A stretch of 64,000 nucleotides of DNA from Homoserinimonas sp. (GCA_023957835.1 JAMLGP010000001.1:115575-179574); one strand, 5' to 3'. Shown: positions 21,051 through 51,236, numbered from the stretch's first letter. Numbers and translations are program-made. The notes: generated by a model from the sequence alone, not told the origin.

Positions 21051-21126
21051 GGGGCTATGGCGCAGTTGGTAGCGCGTCTCGTTCGCAATGAGAAGGTCAG
21101 GGGTTCGAATCCCCTTAGCTCCACCA
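21051..21126 (+). tRNA. tRNA-Ala (anticodon CGC), encoded CCA
   Basis: A 76-nt cloverleaf was folded by hand: acceptor GGGGCTA/TAGCTCC with the G3:U70 alanine identity pair, anticodon loop TTCGCAA, and T-arm AGGGG-TTCGAAT-CCCCT. Confidence 0.95.
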
Positions 21127-23693: not shown

Positions 23694-24800
23694 ATGTCGC
23701 AGCTTTCAATCAAGAACGATCGATCGCCGATTGGAATGGTGGTCGGAGTAGGAATCGCCCTCGCGGCTCTCGTAGCCGTCATAGTTCTCGCCTTCGCCTG
23801 GCCGTCGGTTACCGCCGAGCCGAAGGATCTCCCGATCGCAATCAGCGGTCCGAGCCAGGCGGTCGATGGCGCCAAGGCGGCGGTCGAGCAGATGCAGCCT
23901 GGTGCGATTGCCTTCAAGCAGCTGGACAGTCGCGAGGCAGCGGTTGACGCGATTGAGTCGCGCGAGGTTTACGGGGCGATCGTGCTCGGACAAAGCCCTG
24001 AGGTTCTGACTTCTTCGGCCGCGAGCACTGTTGTTACCCAAATGCTCAGCGCAGTGGCCGCGAACCTCGAGGAAGGCGTCAACGCGCAGGCGGCGGCAGC
24101 GGCTCAGGCGGCCGGGGCACCGACCGCGCCACCGCACATTGATGTTCCGGTGACGGATGTCGTGCCGCTTGCCGACACAGACCCGCGCGGCACGGGGCTC
24201 GCGGCCGCGCTCTTCCCACTCGTGCTCGGCGGAATGATCGGCGGAATCGCGATCTCGATCGTCATCGGCGGAGCGCTGCGCAGGGTTTCTGCCGTACTCG
24301 TCTACGCGGTGGTCGGCGGCTTCACCCTGCCTGCCATTCTTCAGGGCTGGTTCGGCGCTCTGCAGGGCGACTACCTGCTGAACTCTGCGGCCTTCGCACT
24401 CGCGCTCGCAGCAATCGCCAGCGCGATCACCGGCTTCGCAGGCCTGCTAGGCCGTGCCGGGGTTGCCCTCGGTGCCGTGACGATCCTCCTGATCGCCAAC
24501 CCGATTTCTGCGGCCGTGTTCCCGAAGGAATTCATCCTGCAGCCTTGGGGAGACGTCGGCCAGTGGTTCCCGCCTGGAGCGGCTTCGACCCTCCTTCGCA
24601 ACCTCTCCTACTTCCCGAGCGCGGATGTCCTCTTCCCCTGGCTGGTCCTGGCCGGCTGGACAGTTGTCGGCCTACTGCTCTCGGTCGTCGGCCACTTCCG
24701 GAACTCTCGAGGGGAGGCGGCGGTGTCGGCTCCGGCTCCTGCTCCTGCTCCTGCTTCGGCTCCTGCTTCGGCTTCGGCTGAGTCGGCTGCGGTTGCCTGA
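23694..24800 (+). CDS. YhgE/Pip-like (ABC-2/DUF3533-type) membrane protein with a Pro/Ala/Ser repeat tail
   Basis: N-terminal TM segment, a soluble domain of about 130 aa, then 5 TM segments, ending in APAPAPAPASAPASASAESAAVA. It is divergent from the TetR gene. Confidence 0.6.
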   Translation: MSQLSIKNDRSPIGMVVGVGIALAALVAVIVLAFAWPSVTAEPKDLPIAISGPSQAVDGAKAAVEQMQPGAIAFKQLDSREAAVDAIESREVYGAIVLGQSPEVLTSSAASTVVTQMLSAVAANLEEGVNAQAAAAAQAAGAPTAPPHIDVPVTDVVPLADTDPRGTGLAAALFPLVLGGMIGGIAISIVIGGALRRVSAVLVYAVVGGFTLPAILQGWFGALQGDYLLNSAAFALALAAIASAITGFAGLLGRAGVALGAVTILLIANPISAAVFPKEFILQPWGDVGQWFPPGAASTLLRNLSYFPSADVLFPWLVLAGWTVVGLLLSVVGHFRNSRGEAAVSAPAPAPAPASAPASASAESAAVA

Positions 24801-35376: not shown

Positions 35377-35460
35377 CAGCAAGGCCAGCCCAGTTGAGAG
35401 CGCTCAGTAGGGCGAGCTCAGTTGGGCCAGCCCAGTTGGGCCAGCCCAGCAAGGCCTGCG
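35377..35460. repeat. tandem repeat, 6 units of 14 bp (consensus CAGTTGGGCCAGCC)
   Basis: The units are cagcaaggccagcc / cagttgagagcgct / cagtagggcgagct / cagttgggccagcc / cagttgggccagcc / cagcaaggcctgcg. They sit between two convergent genes. Confidence 0.85.
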
Positions 35461-37044: not shown

Positions 37045-39540
37045 ATGGGAGCAAAAATGGGAATTACCGTCGTCAAGCGCAACGGGGCGCGAGAGCCATA
37101 CGACGCCAACAAGATCAACCTCGCGATCGAAAAGGCAAGCAAGGGCCTCGACGAATCGGTCACCTGGGTGACCCAGATCGCCAGCGAACTCGAGTTGACG
37201 CTCTTTGACGGGATTACCACCCAGCAACTGGATGAGGCGGTCATCCAGGTCGCATTGCAGAACGTCAAGGACGACCCCCAGTTCGACATCGTCGCAGCCA
37301 GACTGCTGCTCAAGACGATTTACAAAAAGGTGCTTGGCGACTACGAGACCGATGACGAACTTCGCCGACTGCACGTAGAGCACTTCGCCCCCAACCTTCG
37401 CCGCGGGGTCGAAGAGGGACTGCTCGATTCGAGGCTCACCGAAATGTTCGACCTCGACCGGCTTGCCGCCGCTCTCGAGCCCGACCGCGATGAACTGTTC
37501 AAGTACATCGGCGTTGTGACGCTAAACAATCGCTACGGAATCAAGGGCCGCAACGGCGACTCGCTTGAGGTGCCGCAGTACTTCTGGATGCGCATCTCGA
37601 TGGGACTGGCCCTGAACGAGGCAGACCCCACCACGCAGGCACTTCGCTTTTACGAGAAGATGTCGAAGCTCGAATATCTCGCCGCCGGCTCCACCCTCGT
37701 CAACGCGGGAACCAGTTACCCGCAGCTTGCCAATTGCTTCGTCATGGAAATGCAGGACGATATCGAGCACATCGCCAAGACCGTGCGGGACGTCATGTGG
37801 CTCACAAAGGGCACCGGCGGCATCGGCCTATCGGTTACAAAGCTGCGCGCCCAGGGCTCGCCGATCAGAAGCAACAACACGACATCCACCGGCCCGATTC
37901 CGTTCATGCACACGATCGACTCTGTGCTTCGCGCGGTAAGCCGCGGCGGCAAGAAGTTCGGAGCGCTCTGCTTCTACATGGAGAACTGGCACCTCGACTT
38001 CCAGGACTTCATCGACCTGCGCCAAAACTCCGGCGACCCGTATCGCCGCACCCGTACCGCAAACACCGCGGTGTGGATCAGCGACGAGTTCATGAAGCGG
38101 GTGCAAAACGACGACGACTGGTACCTGTTCGATCCGCTCGAGGTCGAGGACCTCAACGAGCTTTACGGTAAGGCGTTCTCTGAACGCTACGCCCACTACG
38201 CGGCTGAGGCGGATGCCGGCCGGCTGCACATGTTCAAGAAGATGAAGGCGCGCGAACAGTTCAAGGCGATCCTGATCTCGCTTTCGGCATCCAGCCACCC
38301 GTGGCTCACCTGGAAGGACACGATCAACAACCGCGCCCTCAACAACAACACCGGCACGATTCACCTCTCGAACCTTTGCACCGAAATCTGCCTGCCGCAG
38401 GACGAGAAGAACGTCTCGGTCTGCAACCTCGCTTCGATCAACCTCTCGCAGCACCTGATCGGCAGAGGGGCGGATGCCCGGATGGACTTCGCGAAGATCG
38501 AAGAGTCCGCGAGGGTCGCCATTCGCCAGCTCGACAACCTCATCGACATCACCAAGTCGAGCGTGCCCGAGGCCGACTTCTCCAACCAGCAGAACCGCGC
38601 AGTCGGGCTTGGGGTCATGGGCTTCACTGACGTGGTCGAGCGGCTCGGCCTTAGCTACGAGAGCGAAGAAGCATACGACCTGATCGACGAGATCATGGAG
38701 CACGTTTCCTGGGCGGCGATCGACGAGTCGACCGAGCTCGCGAAGGAGCGCGGTTCCTACCCGAACTTCGAGGGCTCCGGCTGGTCGAAGGGAATGGTTC
38801 CGCTGGACAGCATCGCGCGCACGGAGCAGGACCGCGGCGTCGAGATCAAGGTCAACCGCAAGAGCCGACTGGATTGGGACAGCATGCGGGCTAAGGTCAG
38901 GGGTGGAATGCGAAACGCTACCCTAATGGCGATTGCGCCGACCGCCTCGATCGGCCTGGTCGCGAGCACTACCCCCGGTCTCGACCCGCAGTTCGCCCAA
39001 ATCTTCAGCCGGTCGACTTCCAGCGGCAAGTTCCTCGAAGTCAACCGCAACCTCGTGGCGGATCTGCAGCGCCTCGGGCTTTGGGAGAAGGTGCGCGAGT
39101 CGATCCTGCGCAGCCAGGGCGACATCCAGATCATCAGTGAGATTCCGGAAGAGCTCAAGCGGGTTTACAAGACGAGCTTCCAGCTCTCTCCCTACGCGTT
39201 CCTCGAGGTCGCGGCGCGCGCCCAGAAGTGGATCGACCAGGCGATCAGCCGCAACATGTACCTCGAAACTCGCGACATCGGCGAGATGATGGACATCTAT
39301 TACGGCGCGTGGGAGCGAGGGGTCAAGACGACCTACTACCTGCACATGAAGCCGCGCCACCAGGCCGAGCAGTCGACCGTCAAGGTCAACAAGGCAGAGG
39401 AGATCGCCGATTCTGCGGGCCGCGGGTTCGGGGCGTCGAAAGCTGCGCAGGCGCCGGTCGAGGCCGTAGCGCCGGCTTCTATTCCGGCCAGGCGCGGCTT
39501 CGGCGGACTCAAAGTAACTAGTGAAAAGGAAGGTAAGTAG
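37045..39540 (+). CDS. nrdA: ribonucleoside-diphosphate reductase large subunit with one N-terminal ATP-cone
   Basis: ATP-cone VVKRNGAREPYDANKINLAIEKA. The active-site region NLCTEICLP and the C-terminal tail are typical of class I R1; 831 aa. Confidence 0.9.
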   Translation: MGAKMGITVVKRNGAREPYDANKINLAIEKASKGLDESVTWVTQIASELELTLFDGITTQQLDEAVIQVALQNVKDDPQFDIVAARLLLKTIYKKVLGDYETDDELRRLHVEHFAPNLRRGVEEGLLDSRLTEMFDLDRLAAALEPDRDELFKYIGVVTLNNRYGIKGRNGDSLEVPQYFWMRISMGLALNEADPTTQALRFYEKMSKLEYLAAGSTLVNAGTSYPQLANCFVMEMQDDIEHIAKTVRDVMWLTKGTGGIGLSVTKLRAQGSPIRSNNTTSTGPIPFMHTIDSVLRAVSRGGKKFGALCFYMENWHLDFQDFIDLRQNSGDPYRRTRTANTAVWISDEFMKRVQNDDDWYLFDPLEVEDLNELYGKAFSERYAHYAAEADAGRLHMFKKMKAREQFKAILISLSASSHPWLTWKDTINNRALNNNTGTIHLSNLCTEICLPQDEKNVSVCNLASINLSQHLIGRGADARMDFAKIEESARVAIRQLDNLIDITKSSVPEADFSNQQNRAVGLGVMGFTDVVERLGLSYESEEAYDLIDEIMEHVSWAAIDESTELAKERGSYPNFEGSGWSKGMVPLDSIARTEQDRGVEIKVNRKSRLDWDSMRAKVRGGMRNATLMAIAPTASIGLVASTTPGLDPQFAQIFSRSTSSGKFLEVNRNLVADLQRLGLWEKVRESILRSQGDIQIISEIPEELKRVYKTSFQLSPYAFLEVAARAQKWIDQAISRNMYLETRDIGEMMDIYYGAWERGVKTTYYLHMKPRHQAEQSTVKVNKAEEIADSAGRGFGASKAAQAPVEAVAPASIPARRGFGGLKVTSEKEGK

Positions 39541-39543
39541 ACG

Positions 39544-40545
39544 ATGGCTGGCATTCTGGGGACCGGGGTTCAGGAGGGGCTGCTGCTCAAGCCGGTCAAG
39601 TACCAGTGGGCAATGGATTTGTATGACCAGGCGGTGGCAAACACCTGGTTCCCGAACGAAATCCAGCTCGACCAGGACATCGCAGACTTCAAACGGATGA
39701 CCGATGAGGAGCGCCATGCGATCACCTTCCTCATGAGCTACTTCAATCCGAACGAGCTGCTCGTCAACAAGGCGCTCGCGTTCGGGGTCTACCCGTACCT
39801 CAACGCGGCAGAGGCGCACCTCTACCTCGCCAAGCAAATGTGGGAGGAAGCCAACCACTGCATGAGCTTCGAGTACGTGCTCGAGACCTTCCCGATCGAT
39901 CGCGAGGAGGCCTACAACTCCCACGTCGACGTACCCTCGATGGCGCGCAAGGAGGAGTTCCAGGTCAAATACATCCGCCGGATGACCGAGGACACTCTCG
40001 ATATCACCACGACCGAGGGCAAGCAGGATTTCGTTCGCAATCTCGTCGCCTACAACATCATCCTCGAGGGGATCTGGTTCTACTCGGGCTTCATGGTCGC
40101 CCTGAGCTTCAGGCAGCGCAACCTCCTGCGCAACTTCGGTTCGCTAATGGACTGGATCATTCGCGACGAGAGCCTGCACCTCAAGTTCGGCATCAACCTC
40201 ATCCTGACCGTGCTCGATGAGAACCCGGAACTGCAAACCCCCGAGTTCGCCTCCGAGATCAAGCAGATGATTCTGGATGCGGTGGAGATGGAAGAGGCCT
40301 ACAACGAGGACTTGCTCCCCGGCGGCATCCTCGGCCTCAACGCGAGCTACATCAACCAGTACGTCAAGTACCTGGCCGACCGCCGCCTCGAAGAACTCGG
40401 CTTCGACGCCGAATACAAGGTCTCCAACCCCGCCAAGTGGATGGCCACCGCCAACGACACCTACGAACTCGTCAACTTCTTCGAGTCGACCAACACCTCC
40501 TACGAGGCCAACGCAAAGGCGGTTACCGGGACGAAGAAGGAGTAA
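39544..40545 (+). CDS. nrdB: ribonucleotide reductase small subunit, class Ic-like (Phe at the radical-Tyr position)
   Basis: Metal ligands are NELLV (Glu where class Ia has Asp), EEANH, ILEGIWFY and RDESLH. The residue four positions after the first His is Phe (HCMSF). Confidence 0.85.
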   Translation: MAGILGTGVQEGLLLKPVKYQWAMDLYDQAVANTWFPNEIQLDQDIADFKRMTDEERHAITFLMSYFNPNELLVNKALAFGVYPYLNAAEAHLYLAKQMWEEANHCMSFEYVLETFPIDREEAYNSHVDVPSMARKEEFQVKYIRRMTEDTLDITTTEGKQDFVRNLVAYNIILEGIWFYSGFMVALSFRQRNLLRNFGSLMDWIIRDESLHLKFGINLILTVLDENPELQTPEFASEIKQMILDAVEMEEAYNEDLLPGGILGLNASYINQYVKYLADRRLEELGFDAEYKVSNPAKWMATANDTYELVNFFESTNTSYEANAKAVTGTKKE

Positions 40546-40620
40546 GGCGGGACGTTTAGACCTCAGCGGGAGTGCGTCGTTTGCCTACCAAGGGGACTTT
40601 CGCGACGCTACCCGCATCGT

Positions 40621-40715
40621 GTACTTTAGTTTCGTACGGGATTCCCAATAAGGTTCTGGCCGAAAGGTTGCAGAACTGACTTCTCGCCCTCCTTCGGGAG
40701 GGCATTCCCGTTTTT
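40621..40715 (+). ncRNA. predicted tracrRNA of the type II-C system (5' end uncertain)
   Basis: 40636..40649 ACGGGATTCCCAAT pairs over 14 bp with the first 14 nt of the minus-strand repeat GTTGGGAATCCCGT. 40627..40633 TTTAGTT pairs with repeat nt 26-32 AACTAGA. A TAAGG nexus-like junction follows, then hairpin GTTCTG-GCCGAAAGGTTG-CAGAAC (40653..40676), then GCCCTCC-TTCG-GGAGGGC (40686..40703) and TTTTT (40711..40715). The cas9 ATG is 38 nt downstream. Confidence 0.7.
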
Positions 40716-40752
40716 ATTGCTGAATATCGGTGGTATGGGATAAGAATTGCTC

Positions 40753-43700
40753 ATGTCCACATTCATCGTTGGAACTGACGTTGGTCAGAACTCAGTTGGT
40801 CTCGCGACTATCGAAGTTGATGAGAATAACTTCCCAGTTTCTATTCCAAATCTTCTGGTCGTATTGCACGACAGCGGTAAAGATGGCATGGCTTCGGGGC
40901 AGACTGCGTCTGTTAGTCGAAAAGCCTCCGGCGGCGTGGCACGCAGAGTGCGAAGACTGTTGAGAAATCGTCGCCGACGCGCACTGAAGTTGGAACAGGG
41001 TCTCGCAGAACGTGGCTACCCAGTGCCGCCTAGAGATAGCCCGACGACCTATGGGCCGTGGGAGGCAAGAAGCGAACTCCTGGCGGGCCCGATCGAATCC
41101 GACCAGAGACGGCGGGAGATGTTATCACTCGCAATCAGGCACATGTCCAATCATCGTGGGTGGGCTAACGCCTGGGTTTCGCTTGAGTCCTATTGGAACG
41201 AAGAAGAACCGAGTAAGGAGTTTCAAACCGCGGTCGAAGTTGCTCGTGAGAAGGCGGGTTTAGGTGGTGAATTCCTGAGCGAACCAAGATTTCAAGCTGA
41301 CTTGGCGAGGTATGGCTGGTCAAATGAGTTCCAGCTTCGCCCAAGGAAGAACGCAGACCCAGACCGCCCGCATCTACTCGGAACTCAGCGGCGGGTCGAT
41401 GTGGTGCGCGAATGGCGAGAGATTTGCAGTGTTCAGGGTCTACCCAGAGAAGAGTTTGAGTTCTTCGCAAAACGTGCATTTGCCCAGGAGAAGCCAAAGG
41501 TTCCAATTGAGAGAGTTGGGAACGACTGGTTGCCAGGTTTTGAGAATAAGAAGCGTGCCTCTGTCTCTTCACTTGAACATCAAGAGTTCAAGATAAGACA
41601 AGTGGTCGCGAATCTTGCGGTTCGACCATCGCCTCGATCTCGCGAGCGCGAGCGCCTGACGGCCGAGCAACAGAATTTAATCGTCGATCACTTGATGAGC
41701 GTCACTTCGAAGGATGAGCAGCCCAGGTGGCAGGATGTAGCTGAATCGTTTCTTGGGATTGAGCCGAACCTGCTAGTCCATTTCGAGCCCGAGGAACAGC
41801 TCGGCGGACTGGCTCCAATCAACAACTCTGTCCTTCAGGTGCATTCGCTCCCTGCCAAGCATCCGGTTCGTCAGTGGTGGATCGAAGCCGCGCCTGCATC
41901 TCGGCGGTCATTCTTGCTGAACTTTGCCGATCCGGCAGAGACCGAGATTCCGGAGGAAATCGCTGCTCAACTTGAGTCGATTGTCATGGATCTAAATGAG
42001 AAGGAGCTCGATTCCTTCTTGAAACTGAAGTTTGCATCCGGCCGTTCAGCTCACTCGCTCGAAGCACTCGAGATGCTAAATCGCGAGATCGAGTTAAGTG
42101 GCGACCCATATGTCACAGTGAGAAATCGATTGTTCGGGGAGGCAACGAACAAGGGGCCCACTGCTGAGAATCTCGACGCTCAATCGGATCACCCAACGCT
42201 TCAGCGGATTATCCCAATTATCAGGCGATATTTACTTGGGTTGGAGCGCCAGGGGAAGAAGCCTTCGCGAGTTGTGATTGAGCACGTGAGAGATGCCTTT
42301 CTTGGATTCCAAGCCAAACAGGAGGCATCCCTGGAAATGATTCGGAATCGTAAGTCACGTGAAGTCGCGAAGCAGGACATTGCAAACTCCGGATACATCA
42401 CAAACGCAGAAAACGCCGACGACGGAATGATCCGCAAGTTCCAGGCGTTTAGGAGGCAGAACAGCGAGTGCCTCTATTGCGGCGCGACCCCCGGTTGGAC
42501 CGGGATGGAGATGGATCACATCGTTCCTCGAGCTTCCGGCGGGAACTCCACCCGTGCGAATCTGGTTGCCGTATGCCGCGATTGCAACGCGGCCAAAGGG
42601 AAGCTTCCATTTGCGCAATTTGCGGCTTCAGGAAAGCGTCCGGGGGTGAGCCTGAGTGACGCCATCGAGCGAGTTCGTAGCTATTTGCAATTTGAACTCG
42701 ATCGAAAGCAACTTGAACGGCTCAAGAAGGAAACCATCCGAAGGCTCAAGCAAACTGAAGAAGATGAACCAATCGATGAGCGCGCGCTGGCAAGCACAGC
42801 CTATGCCGCGGTAGAGGTTCGACGAAGGGTCATGGAGAGCCTTGAATTGCCAAGCCAGGACGTGCCGGTTTATTCCGGAAAGATAGTGAGCGCCGCACGA
42901 CATTCAAGCGGTGTCGACAAGATCATCGCGCTTCGCGAAGGGATCGATGTCAAGACCCGATTCGATCGCAGGCACCATGCAATCGATGCAGCAGTCGTCG
43001 CGATGATGAACCCTTCGGTGGCAAGGACACTTGCCGAGCGGGATGACTTGCGAAATGCCGAGCGCGCGCTAGGCGAGCAAACAGGTTGGCGCGAGTACGA
43101 AGGTTCGACGCCTGCTGCGCGCGAGAAGTTCTCGCAATGGAAAGCATCGATGAAGCGCCTCTCAGAATTGATTCGCGAAAAGGTTGAGGCGGACGAGGTG
43201 GTTGTCATGCAGCCAGTTCGCTACTCTGCGCACCACGCGGCTCTGCACCTCGACGGCAAGTCCCCTCACGTTCGCAAACGTCTTGGGGAGGCCTGGACTG
43301 GTGAAGAGCGCGCTCGAATCGTGGACGACAAGGTTTACGAAGCCGTATCCGGTACTACTCGCCCAAGCGACAGCCAGCCCGAGGACGCTACTAGATCGAT
43401 CGTGTTACCGAATGGGCAGAAGCTCGAGGCAAGCGGTGACATCTACTTGTTCCCGTCTTTAGCTGCTAGGCAGCCTTTACCAAACGCGGCTTCCGCAGAA
43501 CTTGGGCCGACTATGCATCATGTACGGCTATTTCGGTGGCCCGATAAGAAGGATGGTTGGAAGGCAGGGATAATCAGGGTTTGGGCTTCGGATCTGTACG
43601 ACCTTGAAGGTGGTGTAGGTGCGGATGTATTGACCGCGCCACTATTGGCGTCGTCGCGTGCGGTGCGTCGAGCGAATGGCACTCGTGACGGAGTGCGAAA

Positions 43701-44121
43701 TGCGATCCACGAAGGAGTAGCAGAGCACGTGGGGACCTTCGTCATTGGAGACGAAATCATAATCGACCCAAGAGAGTGGGTGGGCAGCAGCGAACCAGCG
43801 AGATTTCTGGGTGAGTTTCCAGAATCACATTGGAAGCTACTTGGTGCGATGAGTGACTTGCAGTTCACTCTTGGGCCAATTCACCTCTCAAGAGAAGGAA
43901 TTCTTGAGCGAGACGATGATCCCACAGCATCCAAACGAGTGAAGGTCTCTCCACTAGCAAAAAAAGTGATCGGGGATCGAATGCTGATTACAGCTTCAAC
44001 TCTGTGGAGAACAAGGGCAACTCGTGTGGTTAGGCGAACCGCCCTTGGTTCGGAACGGCTCAGTGGTACTTCCGGGATGCCATCTTCTTGGACCCCTTAT
44101 GAGGCGGTTTACGGAAGCTAA
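40753..44121 (+). CDS. cas9: type II-C Cas9 endonuclease (1122 aa)
   Basis: RuvC-I is IVGTDVGQNSVGLA. The Arg-rich bridge helix is ARRVRRLLRNRRRRALKL. RuvC-II is VVIEHVRD. HNH is YCGATPGWTGMEMDHIVPRASGGNSTRANLVAVCRDCNAAKG. RuvC-III is RHHAIDAAVVAM. Confidence 0.95.
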   Translation: MSTFIVGTDVGQNSVGLATIEVDENNFPVSIPNLLVVLHDSGKDGMASGQTASVSRKASGGVARRVRRLLRNRRRRALKLEQGLAERGYPVPPRDSPTTYGPWEARSELLAGPIESDQRRREMLSLAIRHMSNHRGWANAWVSLESYWNEEEPSKEFQTAVEVAREKAGLGGEFLSEPRFQADLARYGWSNEFQLRPRKNADPDRPHLLGTQRRVDVVREWREICSVQGLPREEFEFFAKRAFAQEKPKVPIERVGNDWLPGFENKKRASVSSLEHQEFKIRQVVANLAVRPSPRSRERERLTAEQQNLIVDHLMSVTSKDEQPRWQDVAESFLGIEPNLLVHFEPEEQLGGLAPINNSVLQVHSLPAKHPVRQWWIEAAPASRRSFLLNFADPAETEIPEEIAAQLESIVMDLNEKELDSFLKLKFASGRSAHSLEALEMLNREIELSGDPYVTVRNRLFGEATNKGPTAENLDAQSDHPTLQRIIPIIRRYLLGLERQGKKPSRVVIEHVRDAFLGFQAKQEASLEMIRNRKSREVAKQDIANSGYITNAENADDGMIRKFQAFRRQNSECLYCGATPGWTGMEMDHIVPRASGGNSTRANLVAVCRDCNAAKGKLPFAQFAASGKRPGVSLSDAIERVRSYLQFELDRKQLERLKKETIRRLKQTEEDEPIDERALASTAYAAVEVRRRVMESLELPSQDVPVYSGKIVSAARHSSGVDKIIALREGIDVKTRFDRRHHAIDAAVVAMMNPSVARTLAERDDLRNAERALGEQTGWREYEGSTPAAREKFSQWKASMKRLSELIREKVEADEVVVMQPVRYSAHHAALHLDGKSPHVRKRLGEAWTGEERARIVDDKVYEAVSGTTRPSDSQPEDATRSIVLPNGQKLEASGDIYLFPSLAARQPLPNAASAELGPTMHHVRLFRWPDKKDGWKAGIIRVWASDLYDLEGGVGADVLTAPLLASSRAVRRANGTRDGVRNAIHEGVAEHVGTFVIGDEIIIDPREWVGSSEPARFLGEFPESHWKLLGAMSDLQFTLGPIHLSREGILERDDDPTASKRVKVSPLAKKVIGDRMLITASTLWRTRATRVVRRTALGSERLSGTSGMPSSWTPYEAVYGS

Positions 44122-44127
44122 ATGTGA

Positions 44128-45042
44128 ATGACGGCCGGGCGTCAAGTTATCGATGCAACCCGCCTCGACGGGGCGATAACTTCCGTGCCTGGCGGGGTTG
44201 CAGTCGGCGGCACTCGCGTGCCACTTGAGGACGTCGCCGTCCTTTTGATGGGGGGCACGACCACGATTAGTGGTGGCGCATTGACGAAGCTTGCTCGATA
44301 CCAGGTGATCATTCTCAATTGCGATTGGCGGGGAGTTCCCGATCTGGTCGCCTACGGTTGGAGCGACAACTCGAGAATCGCCAGCAGGCATCGAGCTCAA
44401 GCTGAACTGAGTGAACCAAGACGCAAGAGCGCCTGGCAAGCAATTGTCAAAGCCAAGATTCTTGGGCAGCAGCGGAATCTTGAGTTTCTTGGGATTAGAG
44501 AGGCCGTGCGACTCGCAAACATCCGCAAGGAAGTCAGGTCCGGGGATCCGGCCAATTGCGAGGCCCAGGCTGCCAGGGTTTATTGGGAATGTCTGTTCGA
44601 GGGCACTGAATTTTCTCGGACACCTGGCGGGGAAGATCGCCTAAATTCCCTCTTGAACTACGGCTATGCGGTGGCTCGCGGTTTTGTAATTCAGGCGGTT
44701 TGTATCGCGGGCCTTTGGCCGAGTTACGGGCTCTGGCACCGGAATCGTTCGAACACTTTTGTCCTAGCCGACGACCTCATCGAGCCGTTTCGCCCGGCCG
44801 TTGACTTCTGCGTTGCGACCATGGCGCCGGAGCTGACTCTCGATGACAGAGACGCTAAACGAAGACTGGTAGCTGTGACCTCCGAAGCGATGGACAGAAC
44901 GGGAGCATCAGTCGCAACTTCCATGCGGGACTTCGCCAGCCAACTGGCTATGTATGTGGAGGGGGACAAGGAGAACTTATCGCCTCCGTCCTGGCGCCCG
45001 TCCACGGGAGATCAACTCTTCGATGAGGGCGAGGATGGCTGA
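44128..45042 (+). CDS. cas1: CRISPR-associated endonuclease Cas1
   Basis: NSLLNYGYAVARGFV...GLWHRNRSNTFVLADDLIEPFRPAVD core; 304 aa. It starts 7 nt after cas9. Confidence 0.93.
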   Translation: MTAGRQVIDATRLDGAITSVPGGVAVGGTRVPLEDVAVLLMGGTTTISGGALTKLARYQVIILNCDWRGVPDLVAYGWSDNSRIASRHRAQAELSEPRRKSAWQAIVKAKILGQQRNLEFLGIREAVRLANIRKEVRSGDPANCEAQAARVYWECLFEGTEFSRTPGGEDRLNSLLNYGYAVARGFVIQAVCIAGLWPSYGLWHRNRSNTFVLADDLIEPFRPAVDFCVATMAPELTLDDRDAKRRLVAVTSEAMDRTGASVATSMRDFASQLAMYVEGDKENLSPPSWRPSTGDQLFDEGEDG

Positions 45043-45352
45043 TCCTGTGTGGCTCTTGGTCATGTTCGACCTGCCTGTGCTCGAAAAAGAGCAGAGGCGT
45101 GAAGCGAATGCCTACAGAAAGCTCCTATTGAACCGAGGGTTCTCGAGGGTTCAGCTTTCGGTCTACTGCAGATACATGATTAACGCGACAGCGACGCTCC
45201 CGATAATTGAATACCTTAAGTCGACTGTTCCAGATGAGGGCTACGTCCGAATACTTCAGCTATCGGATCGTCAGTGGTCCAAGGGTTGGCACCTCTATGG
45301 AGACAAGTACATTCCTCCGGAGGAGGCACCTGAGCAACTTTTGCTCTTCTAG
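45035..45352 (+). CDS. cas2: CRISPR-associated endoribonuclease Cas2
   Basis: MADPVWLLVMFDLPV...VQLSVY; 105 aa. It overlaps the cas1 stop by 8 nt. Confidence 0.9.
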   Translation: MADPVWLLVMFDLPVLEKEQRREANAYRKLLLNRGFSRVQLSVYCRYMINATATLPIIEYLKSTVPDEGYVRILQLSDRQWSKGWHLYGDKYIPPEEAPEQLLLF

Positions 45353-45409
45353 CCAACCGTTTGGTCGACCTGAGGTACGCGCGACAGCAAATTTCACTCG
45401 CTCGAAAGA

Positions 45410-45444
45410 GGCCGGATCCCTTGATTTCCAAGGGATCCAAGGCC
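45410..45444. terminator. strong hairpin between cas2 and the array (candidate bidirectional terminator)
   Basis: GGCC-GGATCCCTTG-atttc-CAAGGGATCC-aa-GGCC: a perfect 10-bp core stem plus an outer 4 bp. No long U-tract on either side. Confidence 0.5.
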
Positions 45445-45449
45445 TCTCT

Positions 45450-46317
45450 CAAGTCTAGTTGGGAGAGATGAACGGGATTCCCAACACCTGAGAGCCTGGT
45501 ACACGGCAGTCCACAAGTCTAGTTGGGAGAGATGAACGGGATTCCCAACCGGCGTGATCGGGGCAATCGTTGGCGTCCAAGTCTAGTTGGGAGAGATGAA
45601 CGGGATTCCCAACCGACGACTTTGGTTAGGTCAGACTTGAACAAGTCTAGTTGGGAGAGATGAACGGGATTCCCAACATAAGAAATTTCAAGAAATGTTC
45701 GGAACCAAGTCTAGTTGGGAGAGATGAACGGGATTCCCAACCGGCTCCGCGCTGGGCGGTGGCCGATGACAAGTCTAGTTGGGAGAGATGAACGGGATTC
45801 CCAACAACGAGTCGAGCGTGGTGGCGTTCGGGACAAGTCTAGTTGGGAGAGATGAACGGGATTCCCAACAGTGATCGGATCTGATCGACGTACACGACAA
45901 GTCTAGTTGGGAGAGATGAACGGGATTCCCAACTTACATATCCACCGGAGACCGCGACGAGCAAGTCTAGTTGGGAGAGATGAACGGGATTCCCAACTGT
46001 AGGAGATCGTTACCGTCTTGATCGGCAAGTCTAGTTGGGAGAGATGAACGGGATTCCCAACTTTGCGTACCACGCGGCAACGCCCACCTCAAGTCTAGTT
46101 GGGAGAGATGAACGGGATTCCCAACATCCTTCAAACCTGATGCTGGACGTTGCCAAGTCTAGTTGGGAGAGATGAACGGGATTCCCAACCTTGGAGGTCG
46201 TAGCAGACGTCCGCTCTCAAGTCTAGTTGGGAGAGATGAACGGGATTCCCAACCTACGTCGGACCCAACGGCGGCGGCAAGCAAGTCTAGTTGGGAGAGA
46301 TGAACGGGATTCCCAAC
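45450..46317 (-). CRISPR. CRISPR array: 14 identical 36-nt repeats, 13 spacers of exactly 28 nt
   Basis: Plus-strand repeat is CAAGTCTAGTTGGGAGAGATGAACGGGATTCCCAAC; the crRNA-sense minus strand is GTTGGGAATCCCGTTCATCTCTCCCAACTAGACTTG. Repeat starts were checked at 45450 + 64n for n=0..13. The strand was assigned from the GTTG... 5' end and the tracrRNA anti-repeat. Confidence 0.97.
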
Positions 46318-46520
46318 ATATCTGGGTCTCAAACGACGATTGGCGGTTGGAAGTGAGAGACTTTCGTTGTCCCGAAGGGACCGCGCTTCTTCTGCCTCTG
46401 CGCAGAAGAAGCGCGACAGTCGGCAGCCAGGTTAGACATAACTTCTGGGTCTTGAAGTGACCTTCAGAAAGTCTTTATTCAGGCCTACAGCAGGCCTTGA
46501 TTTCGGCCTACAATTGAGGC

Positions 46521-50237: not shown

Positions 50238-51236
50238 GTGAAATCGTCAAAGGACGAGCTGTCGGCGGCAGGTAATCCCCTGCCGCCGACAGCAGACGAA
50301 CCTGAGCCGATCAAAGCGATTCGGCTCAAGCACCCTGTGCGGATAATCTTCGCGATCATTCTGATAGTGGCGCTCGCCATCTTCCTGATCGACGCCGCTC
50401 AGCGCCCCGCCTATAGCTGGGGAAATTTCAGCAAATACATTTTTGACAAGCGAATCTCTCAGGCCGCAGGGTTCACCCTTCTGCTCACGATCTACTCAAT
50501 GGCGATTGCGATCGTGCTCGGAATCACCATAGCGGTAATGCGGCTCTCCGACAACCCGGTGGTTAAGGGGGTCGCCTGGCTCTACCTCTGGATATTCCGC
50601 GGCACTCCGGTGTATGTGCAGCTTGTGTTCTGGGGACTGATTACAACCATCTACCAGACGATCGACATCGGGATCCCGTTCACTCAGCCCTGGATTTCGA
50701 TCGAGTCCAAAGGCTTTATCGACGTCTTCTGGCTCTCGGTAATCGGACTCGCTCTCAATGAAGCTGCCTATATGGCGGAGATCGTGCGGGCCGGCATCCT
50801 CTCGGTAGATAAAGGGCAGGATGAGGCGGCAACCGCTCTGGGCATGTCCTGGATGCAGACCATGCGCAGGGTAATCATCCCGCAGGCCATGCGGATCATC
50901 ATCCCGCCGACCGGCAACGAGGTCATCTCAATGCTAAAGACGACTTCGCTTGTAACCGCGGTGCCGTTCAGCTTCGACCTCTACGGTCGGGCACGGGATA
51001 TTTCGGTCGAGATCTACGACCCGATTCCGCTGCTGCTCGTTGCCTCCGCCTGGTATCTGGCGTTCACTTCGGTGCTCATGGTTGGGCAGTACTTCCTCGA
51101 GAAGCGGTTCTCACGCGGGGTCGGTCAGGCCAGAACAGACAAGAAGGGCGGAATTGACCCAGACCAGACCGGGGCAATTCAGGTCGCTACCGGCGCGGTT
51201 CGCGTCGACGCACACGGTTCGGAGCACACGAAATGA
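50238..51236 (+). CDS. amino-acid ABC transporter permease
   Basis: EAA-type loop ([23 protein letters not shown]); His/Glu/Gln/Arg family. Confidence 0.88.

Follow-up and report, generated by a model that had tools for sequence, protein, structure and literature searches.

We propose that positions 40634 to 40715 of the plus strand very probably encode the tracrRNA of an actinobacterial type II-C CRISPR-Cas9 system and that the crRNAs of this system are transcribed from the minus strand. The window, by which we mean the whole 64,000-nucleotide stretch of Homoserinimonas DNA that was analyzed, carries the element in the 207-nt gap that its open reading frame (ORF) map shows between the gene for the ribonucleotide reductase (RNR) beta subunit and cas9. 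The element ends 37 nt 5' of cas9, and its anti-repeat lies 104 nt 5' of the cas9-cas1-cas2-array locus (Table 1). The same pair of strands had been predicted from the window itself. Within the window, one G:U pair, the U-run, and one hexamer carry the strand call; its weight comes from related loci, in which the position and strand of the element, its co-variation with the repeat, the hexamer, compensatory changes in the stems, and a TANNNT motif in the repeats all agree with it.

The solved structures nearest to the window Cas9 are AnaCas9 (4ogc, E 4e-142), AceCas9 (8d2k, E 4e-109), and CdCas9 (6joo, E 4e-95), all three of them actinobacterial type II-C enzymes; identity of the window protein does not exceed 72% with the other sequences found or 62% with the genome representatives. 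The ORF map and NCBIfam searches revealed only cas9, cas1, and cas2 at the locus, with neither csn2 nor cas4, and the layout is therefore that of type II-C. The longest ORF for cas2 begins at 44954, and relatives L081, L082, and L085 carry a cas2 of 105 aa, the length obtained from the likely start listed in Table 1. The first gene past the array encodes a UbiB-like kinase. A hexamer, TAAGAA, at 40741-40746 spans exactly the interval from 12 to 7 nt ahead of the first base of the cas9 ATG, and TAGACA, TAAGAA, or TAGAAC occurs at an equal offset in the window and in L081, L082, and L088. Such a hexamer would fit a leaderless cas9 mRNA, with a final base that is not the usual T. Elsewhere in the window, a tRNA gene (21051-21123) and short tandem repeats at 24727-24779 and 35383-35449, with periods of 6 nt and 14 nt, are unrelated to the tracrRNA.

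Table 1. Features of the locus, in window coordinates; RNA parts and promoter motifs are predictions.
Feature	Position	Strand	Details
Ribonucleotide reductase alpha	37045-39540	+	
Ribonucleotide reductase beta	39544-40545	+	operon end at 40545
-10-like hexamer TACTTT (TANNNT), putative tracrRNA promoter	40622-40627	+	conserved in relatives
Predicted tracrRNA, about 82 nt	40634-40715	+	5' end from hexamer plus 7 nt, precision about 2 nt; 3' end is the U-run
Anti-repeat ACGGGAUUCCCAAU	40636-40649	+	pairs with minus-sense repeat nt 1-14, GUUGGGAAUCCCGU
Connecting dinucleotide AA (CL1)	40650-40651	+	TAAG/TAAC junction invariant in relatives
Stem-loop 1, nexus-like	40652-40677	+	26 nt; core UGGCC-GAAA-GGUUGCA conserved
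Single-stranded linker GACUUCUC (CL2)	40678-40685	+	8 nt; GAyUUsUC in subfamily
Stem-loop 2, GCCCUCC-UUCG-GGAGGGC	40686-40703	+	folds; pairing conserved in relatives
3' tail AUUCCCGUUUUU	40704-40715	+	U-run 40711-40715
cas9	40753-44121	+	1122 aa; TIGR01865, 152.9 bits
cas1 (type II)	44128-45042	+	TIGR03639, 217.6 bits
cas2	45035-45352	+	TIGR01573; likely start ATG 45035, giving 105 aa
Strong hairpin between cas2 and array	45407-45447		z -6.25 on minus, -4.59 on plus; extended stem 45400-45454
CRISPR array	45450-46317	crRNA sense minus	repeat in crRNA sense GUUGGGAAUCCCGUUCAUCUCUCCCAACUAGACUUG; 14 identical 36-nt repeats, 13 spacers all of 28 nt
-10-like hexamer TAGACT in repeat	45452-45457	-	crRNA-sense nt 29-34; recurs every 64 nt to 46284-46289

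The plus-strand sequence at 40636-40649, ACGGGATTCCCAAT, had been described as identical to the 3' part of the plus-strand repeat, and this holds for 13 of its 14 positions: 40636-40648 is an exact 13-nt copy of repeat positions 23-35, but 40649 is T where the repeat has C. The sequence agrees fully with the pairing that was predicted, namely 14 bp made up of 13 Watson-Crick pairs and a terminal G:U (G1:U). This duplex would be the entire crRNA:tracrRNA pairing in the window, and the 3' tail of the RNA is more than a terminator U-run.

The remainder of the segment folds as a scaffold. The minimum free energy (MFE) of 40634-40715 is -33.9 kcal/mol (z -3.47 against shuffled sequences), and AAUAAGG follows directly 3' of the anti-repeat, so the UAAGG junction noted in the original prediction is present; its TAAG/TAAC form is invariant among relatives. 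The predicted hairpin with a GAAA loop is real as well, with limits of 40652-40677 instead of 40653-40676. Its outer stem has 7 pairs, with a G:U at the end, and leads through a bulge of 2 nt to an inner stem of 3 pairs and the GAAA loop. A GC-rich hairpin and TTTTT had also been predicted, and both exist, although the U-run is set 7 nt (AUUCCCG) apart from stem-loop 2, a spacing that is noncanonical for an intrinsic terminator. A search of Rfam 15 with this RNA gave no family at gathering score and only noise at E values up to 10; the tracrRNA subfamily of the window is absent from that release.

A Watson-Crick match of 13 bp fits either pairing of strands equally well, so that the strand could not be settled from the window by itself, and relatives were gathered: 80 genome loci, found via Cas9 alignment, and ten metagenome contigs whose Cas9 is 60-72% identical. 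In nearly all of them, the array lies 3' of cas2 with the same repeat orientation. In the relatives, the element just 5' of cas9 opens with a copy of the end of the repeat of that locus; A(A/G)UAAG comes next, and a stem-loop, a linker, a GC hairpin, and a U-rich tail complete it. A covariance model (R1) was built from the elements of seven relatives, with the window included, and run against both strands of 1.38 Mb. At E < 1 it returned 20 matches, each from a different locus and each just 5' of cas9 on the strand that encodes it; in the window it matched 40634-40715 only, at 91.5 bits, with the window sequence itself part of the model.

Both stem-loops are maintained by compensatory change. 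Across the 20 loci, 98% of the cells are paired in stem-loop 1, with 8 of 10 pairs changed on both sides, and 94% are paired in stem-loop 2, with 5 of 6 pairs so changed; together, this amounts to 13 of 16 pairs, and pairing falls to 46-57% when the partners are slid. These counts come from an alignment fitted to the model and thus lean towards structure. For 15 more distant tracrRNAs, plain MAFFT aligned the hairpins too badly for pair counts, and the covariance-model alignment was used for the counts. From a plain MAFFT alignment, RNAalifold recovered the same two stem-loops together with a helix that closes the molecule, which is taken up below. In two of the related loci, L012 (Actinomyces marseillensis) and L014 (Actinomyces sp. 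S6-Spd3), the array is inverted with respect to cas9 and the GTTGGGA sense lies on the cas9 strand, while the place and strand of the tracrRNA 5' of cas9 are unchanged.

The relatives also indicate which strand is which. In 43 nonredundant loci, when the local repeat is read against the direction of cas9, its first 13-19 nt pair with the anti-repeat; together, the first 14 positions comprise 495 Watson-Crick pairs, 81 G:U pairs, and 26 mismatches. The two partners change together; for instance, the anti-repeat ACGGAAUUCUCAAU of L082 occurs with a repeat that ends in ACGGAATTCCCAAC, and ACAGGUAUCCCAAU of L003 occurs with one that ends in ACAGGTATCCCAAC. When anti-repeat and repeat are compared on the plus strand in these loci, 78 of the 107 differences are C-to-T. 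Such a difference yields G:U if the tracrRNA is read from the plus strand and the crRNA from the minus strand, and an A:C mismatch otherwise, which favors the strands originally predicted; only 6 differences are of types that would form wobble pairs if the strands were exchanged. At the level of sequence, this excess of C-to-T is the strongest evidence for minus-strand crRNAs.

On the opposite assignment, plus-strand transcription would run on from the cas operon into the array, and a minus-strand RNA (40649-40636) would pair to the 3' end of the repeat. This model shares, by construction, the symmetrical 13-bp complementarity, the array does follow cas2 on the same strand, and the segment folds well in its minus strand too (z -2.76). 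We nevertheless regard it as very improbable. Its duplexes would have to tolerate the 78 C-to-T differences as A:C mismatches, the U-run and the TANNNT hexamer exist on the plus strand only, the covariance model matches the plus strand only, and a strong hairpin separates cas2 from the array. Moreover, the homologous CdCas9 is active with a guide whose repeat part begins with ACTGGGG (PMC6488586), the same sense as GTTGGGA, in keeping with the crRNA sense first predicted. Protospacers were sought as well. The whole array had no match among 50,697 phage records and only matches of E >= 0.8, in GC-rich genes, among plasmids, and 1,318 spacers from all loci gave only 16- to 22-nt chance matches in all the locus DNA that was fetched. 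With no protospacers found, the PAM side was not usable as an independent test of orientation.

A comparably small probability attaches to the idea that the segment is only the 3' untranslated region and terminator of the RNR operon, with a repeat match that is due to chance or to a dead repeat fragment. No terminator-like structure lies between the RNR beta stop and the element (40546-40633, z -0.27), which gives this reading some appeal. However, the element is found 5' of cas9 in loci whose upstream genes are quite different (RNR in the window; a pyridine nucleotide oxidoreductase, a cation efflux gene, or fpg elsewhere), it co-varies with the repeat and bears compensatory changes in its stems, and the chance expectation of the repeat match is 0.01. 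The tracrRNA element may double as the RNR terminator. Since no terminator follows RNR, read-through from that operon would enter the tracrRNA and end at its U-run, and it could yield long forms of the tracrRNA.

Even less probable, in our estimation, is an arrangement in which both RNAs are plus-strand transcripts and the tracrRNA pairs UUCCCAAU with GUUGGGAG in the plus-sense repeat. The palindrome GTTGGGA/TCCCAAC in the repeat allows 8 such pairs, two of them G:U, and cofolding gains -7.1 kcal/mol. This pairing is weaker than that of the minus-sense repeat, for which the cofold proposed in the original prediction, once run, gave the 14-bp duplex plus both stem-loops with a gain of -9.3 to -10.7 kcal/mol. 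The co-variation seen in relatives, furthermore, spans repeat nt 8-17 and fits the minus sense only.

Finally, the minus-sense repeat has no other convincing partner in the window. Outside the array, words of 11, 12, or 13 nt shared with either strand of the repeat occur at this site only in the 64-kb window; ACGGGATTCCCAAY, with at most one mismatch, matches this site and the 14 repeats only, where shuffled sequences lead one to expect 0.01; and a search of the 64 kb for at least 13 contiguous pairs with at most one G:U found the anti-repeat as the sole partner. A better anti-repeat elsewhere would have spoken against the predicted tracrRNA, and none was found within the window. These contiguous-helix and exact-word searches replaced a free-energy duplex scan of the window with the repeat, which was dropped because it is not specific in GC-rich DNA (the window is 60% GC). 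The site 50661-50700 shares the 10-mer ATCCCGTTCA with the repeat at 50673, forms a 13-pair helix with one G:U, and reaches -37.5 kcal/mol with the plus-sense repeat in duplexfold, but values of -30 to -35 kcal/mol are obtained with shuffled repeats, chance alone should produce about three shared 10-mers in a sequence of 64 kb, and the site lies within an ORF (50238-51236) with no AAUAAG junction, scaffold, terminator, or covariance-model match; we rejected it as chance-level and scarcely credible as an anti-repeat.

The tracrRNA proposed here, on the plus strand, appears to have a promoter of its own. TANNNT is the usual actinobacterial -10 pattern, and in 53 of 59 nonredundant loci a TANNNT begins 24-29 nt 5' of the junction U, against 0-3 per position elsewhere; it stands 7-8 nt before the anti-repeat. 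A scan with the sigma-70 consensus gave no promoter for the tracrRNA; the actinobacterial pattern is present there. The position of the hexamer follows the length of the anti-repeat complementarity (Spearman 0.72, p 6e-7), and if the start is placed 7 nt after the hexamer, the predicted 5' end lies 0-1 nt past the final pair of the duplex in 26 of 36 loci. In the window, TACTTT plus 7 nt predicts a start near G40634. The original limits of 40621-40715 can thus be kept at the 3' side, but not at 40621: RNA synthesis probably starts near 40634, and 40621-40633 is most likely promoter. The tracrRNA would accordingly be a transcript from its own TACTTT hexamer that starts about 2 nt before the anti-repeat and ends at the U-run.

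A similar motif occurs within the repeats. Among 52 distinct repeats, all 52 have TANNNT at minus-sense nt 29-34 (nt 30-35 in four), with the middle three bases variable, as expected for promoters embedded in repeats. Most of them also have TG two bases 5' of the motif (TGATATAAT in Gardnerella), the TG of an extended -10 that the window repeat lacks; the motif in the window is a candidate promoter. The crRNAs would be short primary transcripts of the minus strand, each initiated from the TAGACT in the 3' portion of the repeat before it; with a 28-nt spacer and a start 7 nt past the hexamer, each would carry a guide of about 24 nt. Nucleotides 1-14 of the repeat would then anneal to the anti-repeat, and Cas9 would bind the duplex and the scaffold. 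The unpaired 22 nt at the 3' end of the repeat would carry the promoter of the next unit and might be trimmed or dispensable.

In type II-C systems, a promoter lies in each repeat, the transcript opens with the oldest, extra repeat, and spacers are acquired at the last one (PMC12080349). Degenerate repeats in the relatives are found at the cas-distal end only, and the cas-distal repeat is the first in the minus sense; all 14 repeats of the window are identical. We propose that new spacers would be inserted at the repeat nearest to cas2, the last one in crRNA sense. Throughout the clade, repeats of 36 nt alternate with spacers of 28 nt, and almost all spacers are exactly 28 nt in nearly every locus; the exceptions stem from repeat consensuses that are 1-2 nt off. 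An internal palindrome, GUUGGGA/UCCCAAC (crRNA-sense nt 1-7 and 21-27), gives the free crRNA a 7-bp hairpin that covers nucleotides needed for pairing with the tracrRNA, and the C-rich tract at repeat nt 21-25 is conserved across the clade.

Predicted hairpins flank the array on both sides. The strong hairpin between cas2 and the array stands just 3' of the last repeat in crRNA sense. Hairpins of other sequence, with z <= -4.6, occupy this place in a dozen relatives, L002, L003, L073, L088, L016, L028, L036, L039, L075, and L031 among them, and one can be discerned by eye in L081, L082, and L085, whose contigs end at the first repeat; none was found there in the Corynebacterium and Bifidobacterium loci. 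The hairpin may insulate transcription of cas2 and of the array from each other, or it may mark the end at which spacers are acquired. On the other, transcription-upstream side (46318-46430), a 14-bp hairpin (GCGCUUCUUCUGCG...) and a 5-bp hairpin lie some 50-100 nt before the first repeat. No U-run follows them, and they recall the upstream structures of type II-C arrays (PMC12080349).

The helix that closes the tracrRNA is the only unusual element of an otherwise ordinary locus and the only part that might teach something new. In the free RNA, 40636-40641 (ACGGGA) pairs with 40705-40710 (UCCCGU) in the MFE structure, the centroid, and the RNAalifold consensus, and this helix shuts the molecule immediately 5' of the U-run. 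Nucleotides 9-14 of the repeat, in crRNA sense, have this same UCCCGU. In relatives, the variants follow the repeat of each locus (ACGGA/UCCGU in L082, ACAGG/CCUGU in L003, ACUGAA/UUCAGU in L011, and GACGA/UCGUC in L006), so that the pairing is kept through at least five sequence solutions: CGGGA/UCCCG, CGGA/UCCG, CAGG/CCUG, CUGAA/UUCAG, and GACGA/UCGUC. The helix is 89% paired in the model-fitted alignment, compared with 39-61% when slid. An alignment-free permutation test, in which each 5' decamer was set against its own tail and the tails of other loci, gave p 0.00085 for 19 loci and p 0.00185 for 15 distinct cores.

Only the AAUAAG/GACUUCUC subfamily has the helix. We rejected it as a clade-wide feature, since of 47 loci only 10 show it in their MFE structure, and L002 and the Corynebacterium and Bifidobacterium loci are among those that lack it. 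The tail UCCCGU of the free tracrRNA would pair with the distal half of the anti-repeat, and the crRNA would have to displace this helix, as cofolding indeed predicts.

Several roles may be suggested for the helix. The proposal that the subfamily tail copies repeat nt 9-15 (UCCCGUU here) and forms a 5'-3' helix ending exactly at the U-run, possibly with a role as terminator, lock, or split strand, is one that we consider possible but doubtful. Because stem-loop 2 is 7 nt away from the U-run, the closing helix could be the real terminator stem. It could also lock the anti-repeat, leaving only UUCCCAAU free as a toehold, such that RNAs with a true repeat alone would open it. A further option is that it could be retained as a split repeat strand and stack against a crRNA duplex of 8 bp, or it could protect the free tracrRNA. 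We know of no terminator, lock, or split-strand role described for a tracrRNA.

These predictions have practical uses. For annotation of the clade, a TANNNT should be sought 7-8 nt before the anti-repeat, with complementarity that ends at the predicted start and differences from the repeat that are mainly C-to-T. For guide design, the sequence defines a crRNA sense, a 14-nt handle, and an 82-nt scaffold for an uncharacterized Cas9 of 1122 aa, and so a candidate single guide can be written as N20-24-GUUGGGAAUCCCGU-GAAA-ACGGGAUUCCCAAUAAGGUUCUGGCCGAAAGGUUGCAGAACUGACUUCUCGCCCUCCUUCGGGAGGGCAUUCCCGUUUUU. Also, spacers are to be read in the minus sense in target and PAM searches.

Several known systems bear comparison with this one. 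A tail of the tracrRNA that occupies its own anti-repeat calls to mind Streptococcus pyogenes, whose long tracrRNA acts as a natural single guide (bioRxiv 10.1101/2020.05.21.102756). There, too, a portion of the tracrRNA itself occupies the anti-repeat, which is a resemblance only. In S. pyogenes, a complete guide-like RNA arises through a 5' extension and represses the cas promoter, whereas the window has a 6- to 8-nt 3' tail without a guide portion.

In Neisseria meningitidis and Campylobacter jejuni, type II-C arrays are transcribed opposite to the cas operon (PMC3737331). The repeat promoters and opposite array of these species are as proposed here for the window, where the candidate TANNNT likewise lies near the 3' end of the repeat. 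Their hexamer stands at the very end of the repeat, their spacers are 30 nt, and their anti-repeats span most of the repeat, whereas the window hexamer is 2 nt from the repeat end, the spacers are 28 nt, and the anti-repeats are 14-17 nt. The first survey of tracrRNAs found none for Corynebacterium diphtheriae, Bifidobacterium longum, or Acidothermus cellulolyticus (PMC3737331), a failure that the short anti-repeats of this clade explain. A II-C tracrRNA has been predicted 5' of cas9 and on the same strand in Bifidobacterium bombi (PMC4521832), which belongs to another subfamily of the same actinobacterial clade; the Bifidobacterium loci have an AGUAAG junction and a UGAAUGCU linker.

The closest published counterparts are the guides of AceCas9 and CdCas9. 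The AceCas9 guide comprises a duplex, a 2-nt AA connector (CL1, A49-A50), stem-loop 1, a loop of about 9 nt (CL2), and stem-loop 2 (PMC7733487). The window RNA has the same order of parts as this RNA from A. cellulolyticus (8d2k/6wbr), and the two Cas9 proteins are homologous over their full length (E 4e-109). The RNA sequences differ, PMC7733487 deals with an engineered single guide whose duplex is 12 bp long, and it describes no 5'-3' closing helix. For CdCas9 from C. diphtheriae (6joo), the guide has a 12-bp duplex, stem-loop 1, an 8- to 9-nt linker that is read base-specifically, and stem-loop 2 (PMC6488586). This order is again that of the window, whose linker GACUUCUC occupies the position of the CdCas9 linker; the latter is AAUGCUCC-like, however, and stem-loop 1 of CdCas9 is without the UGGCC...GGUUGCA core. 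The Corynebacterium loci among the relatives analyzed have about 30% Cas9 identity to the window protein. Judged by sequence, the tracrRNA and its locus are ordinary for their kind, and the predicted scaffold matches the published guides of AceCas9 and CdCas9.
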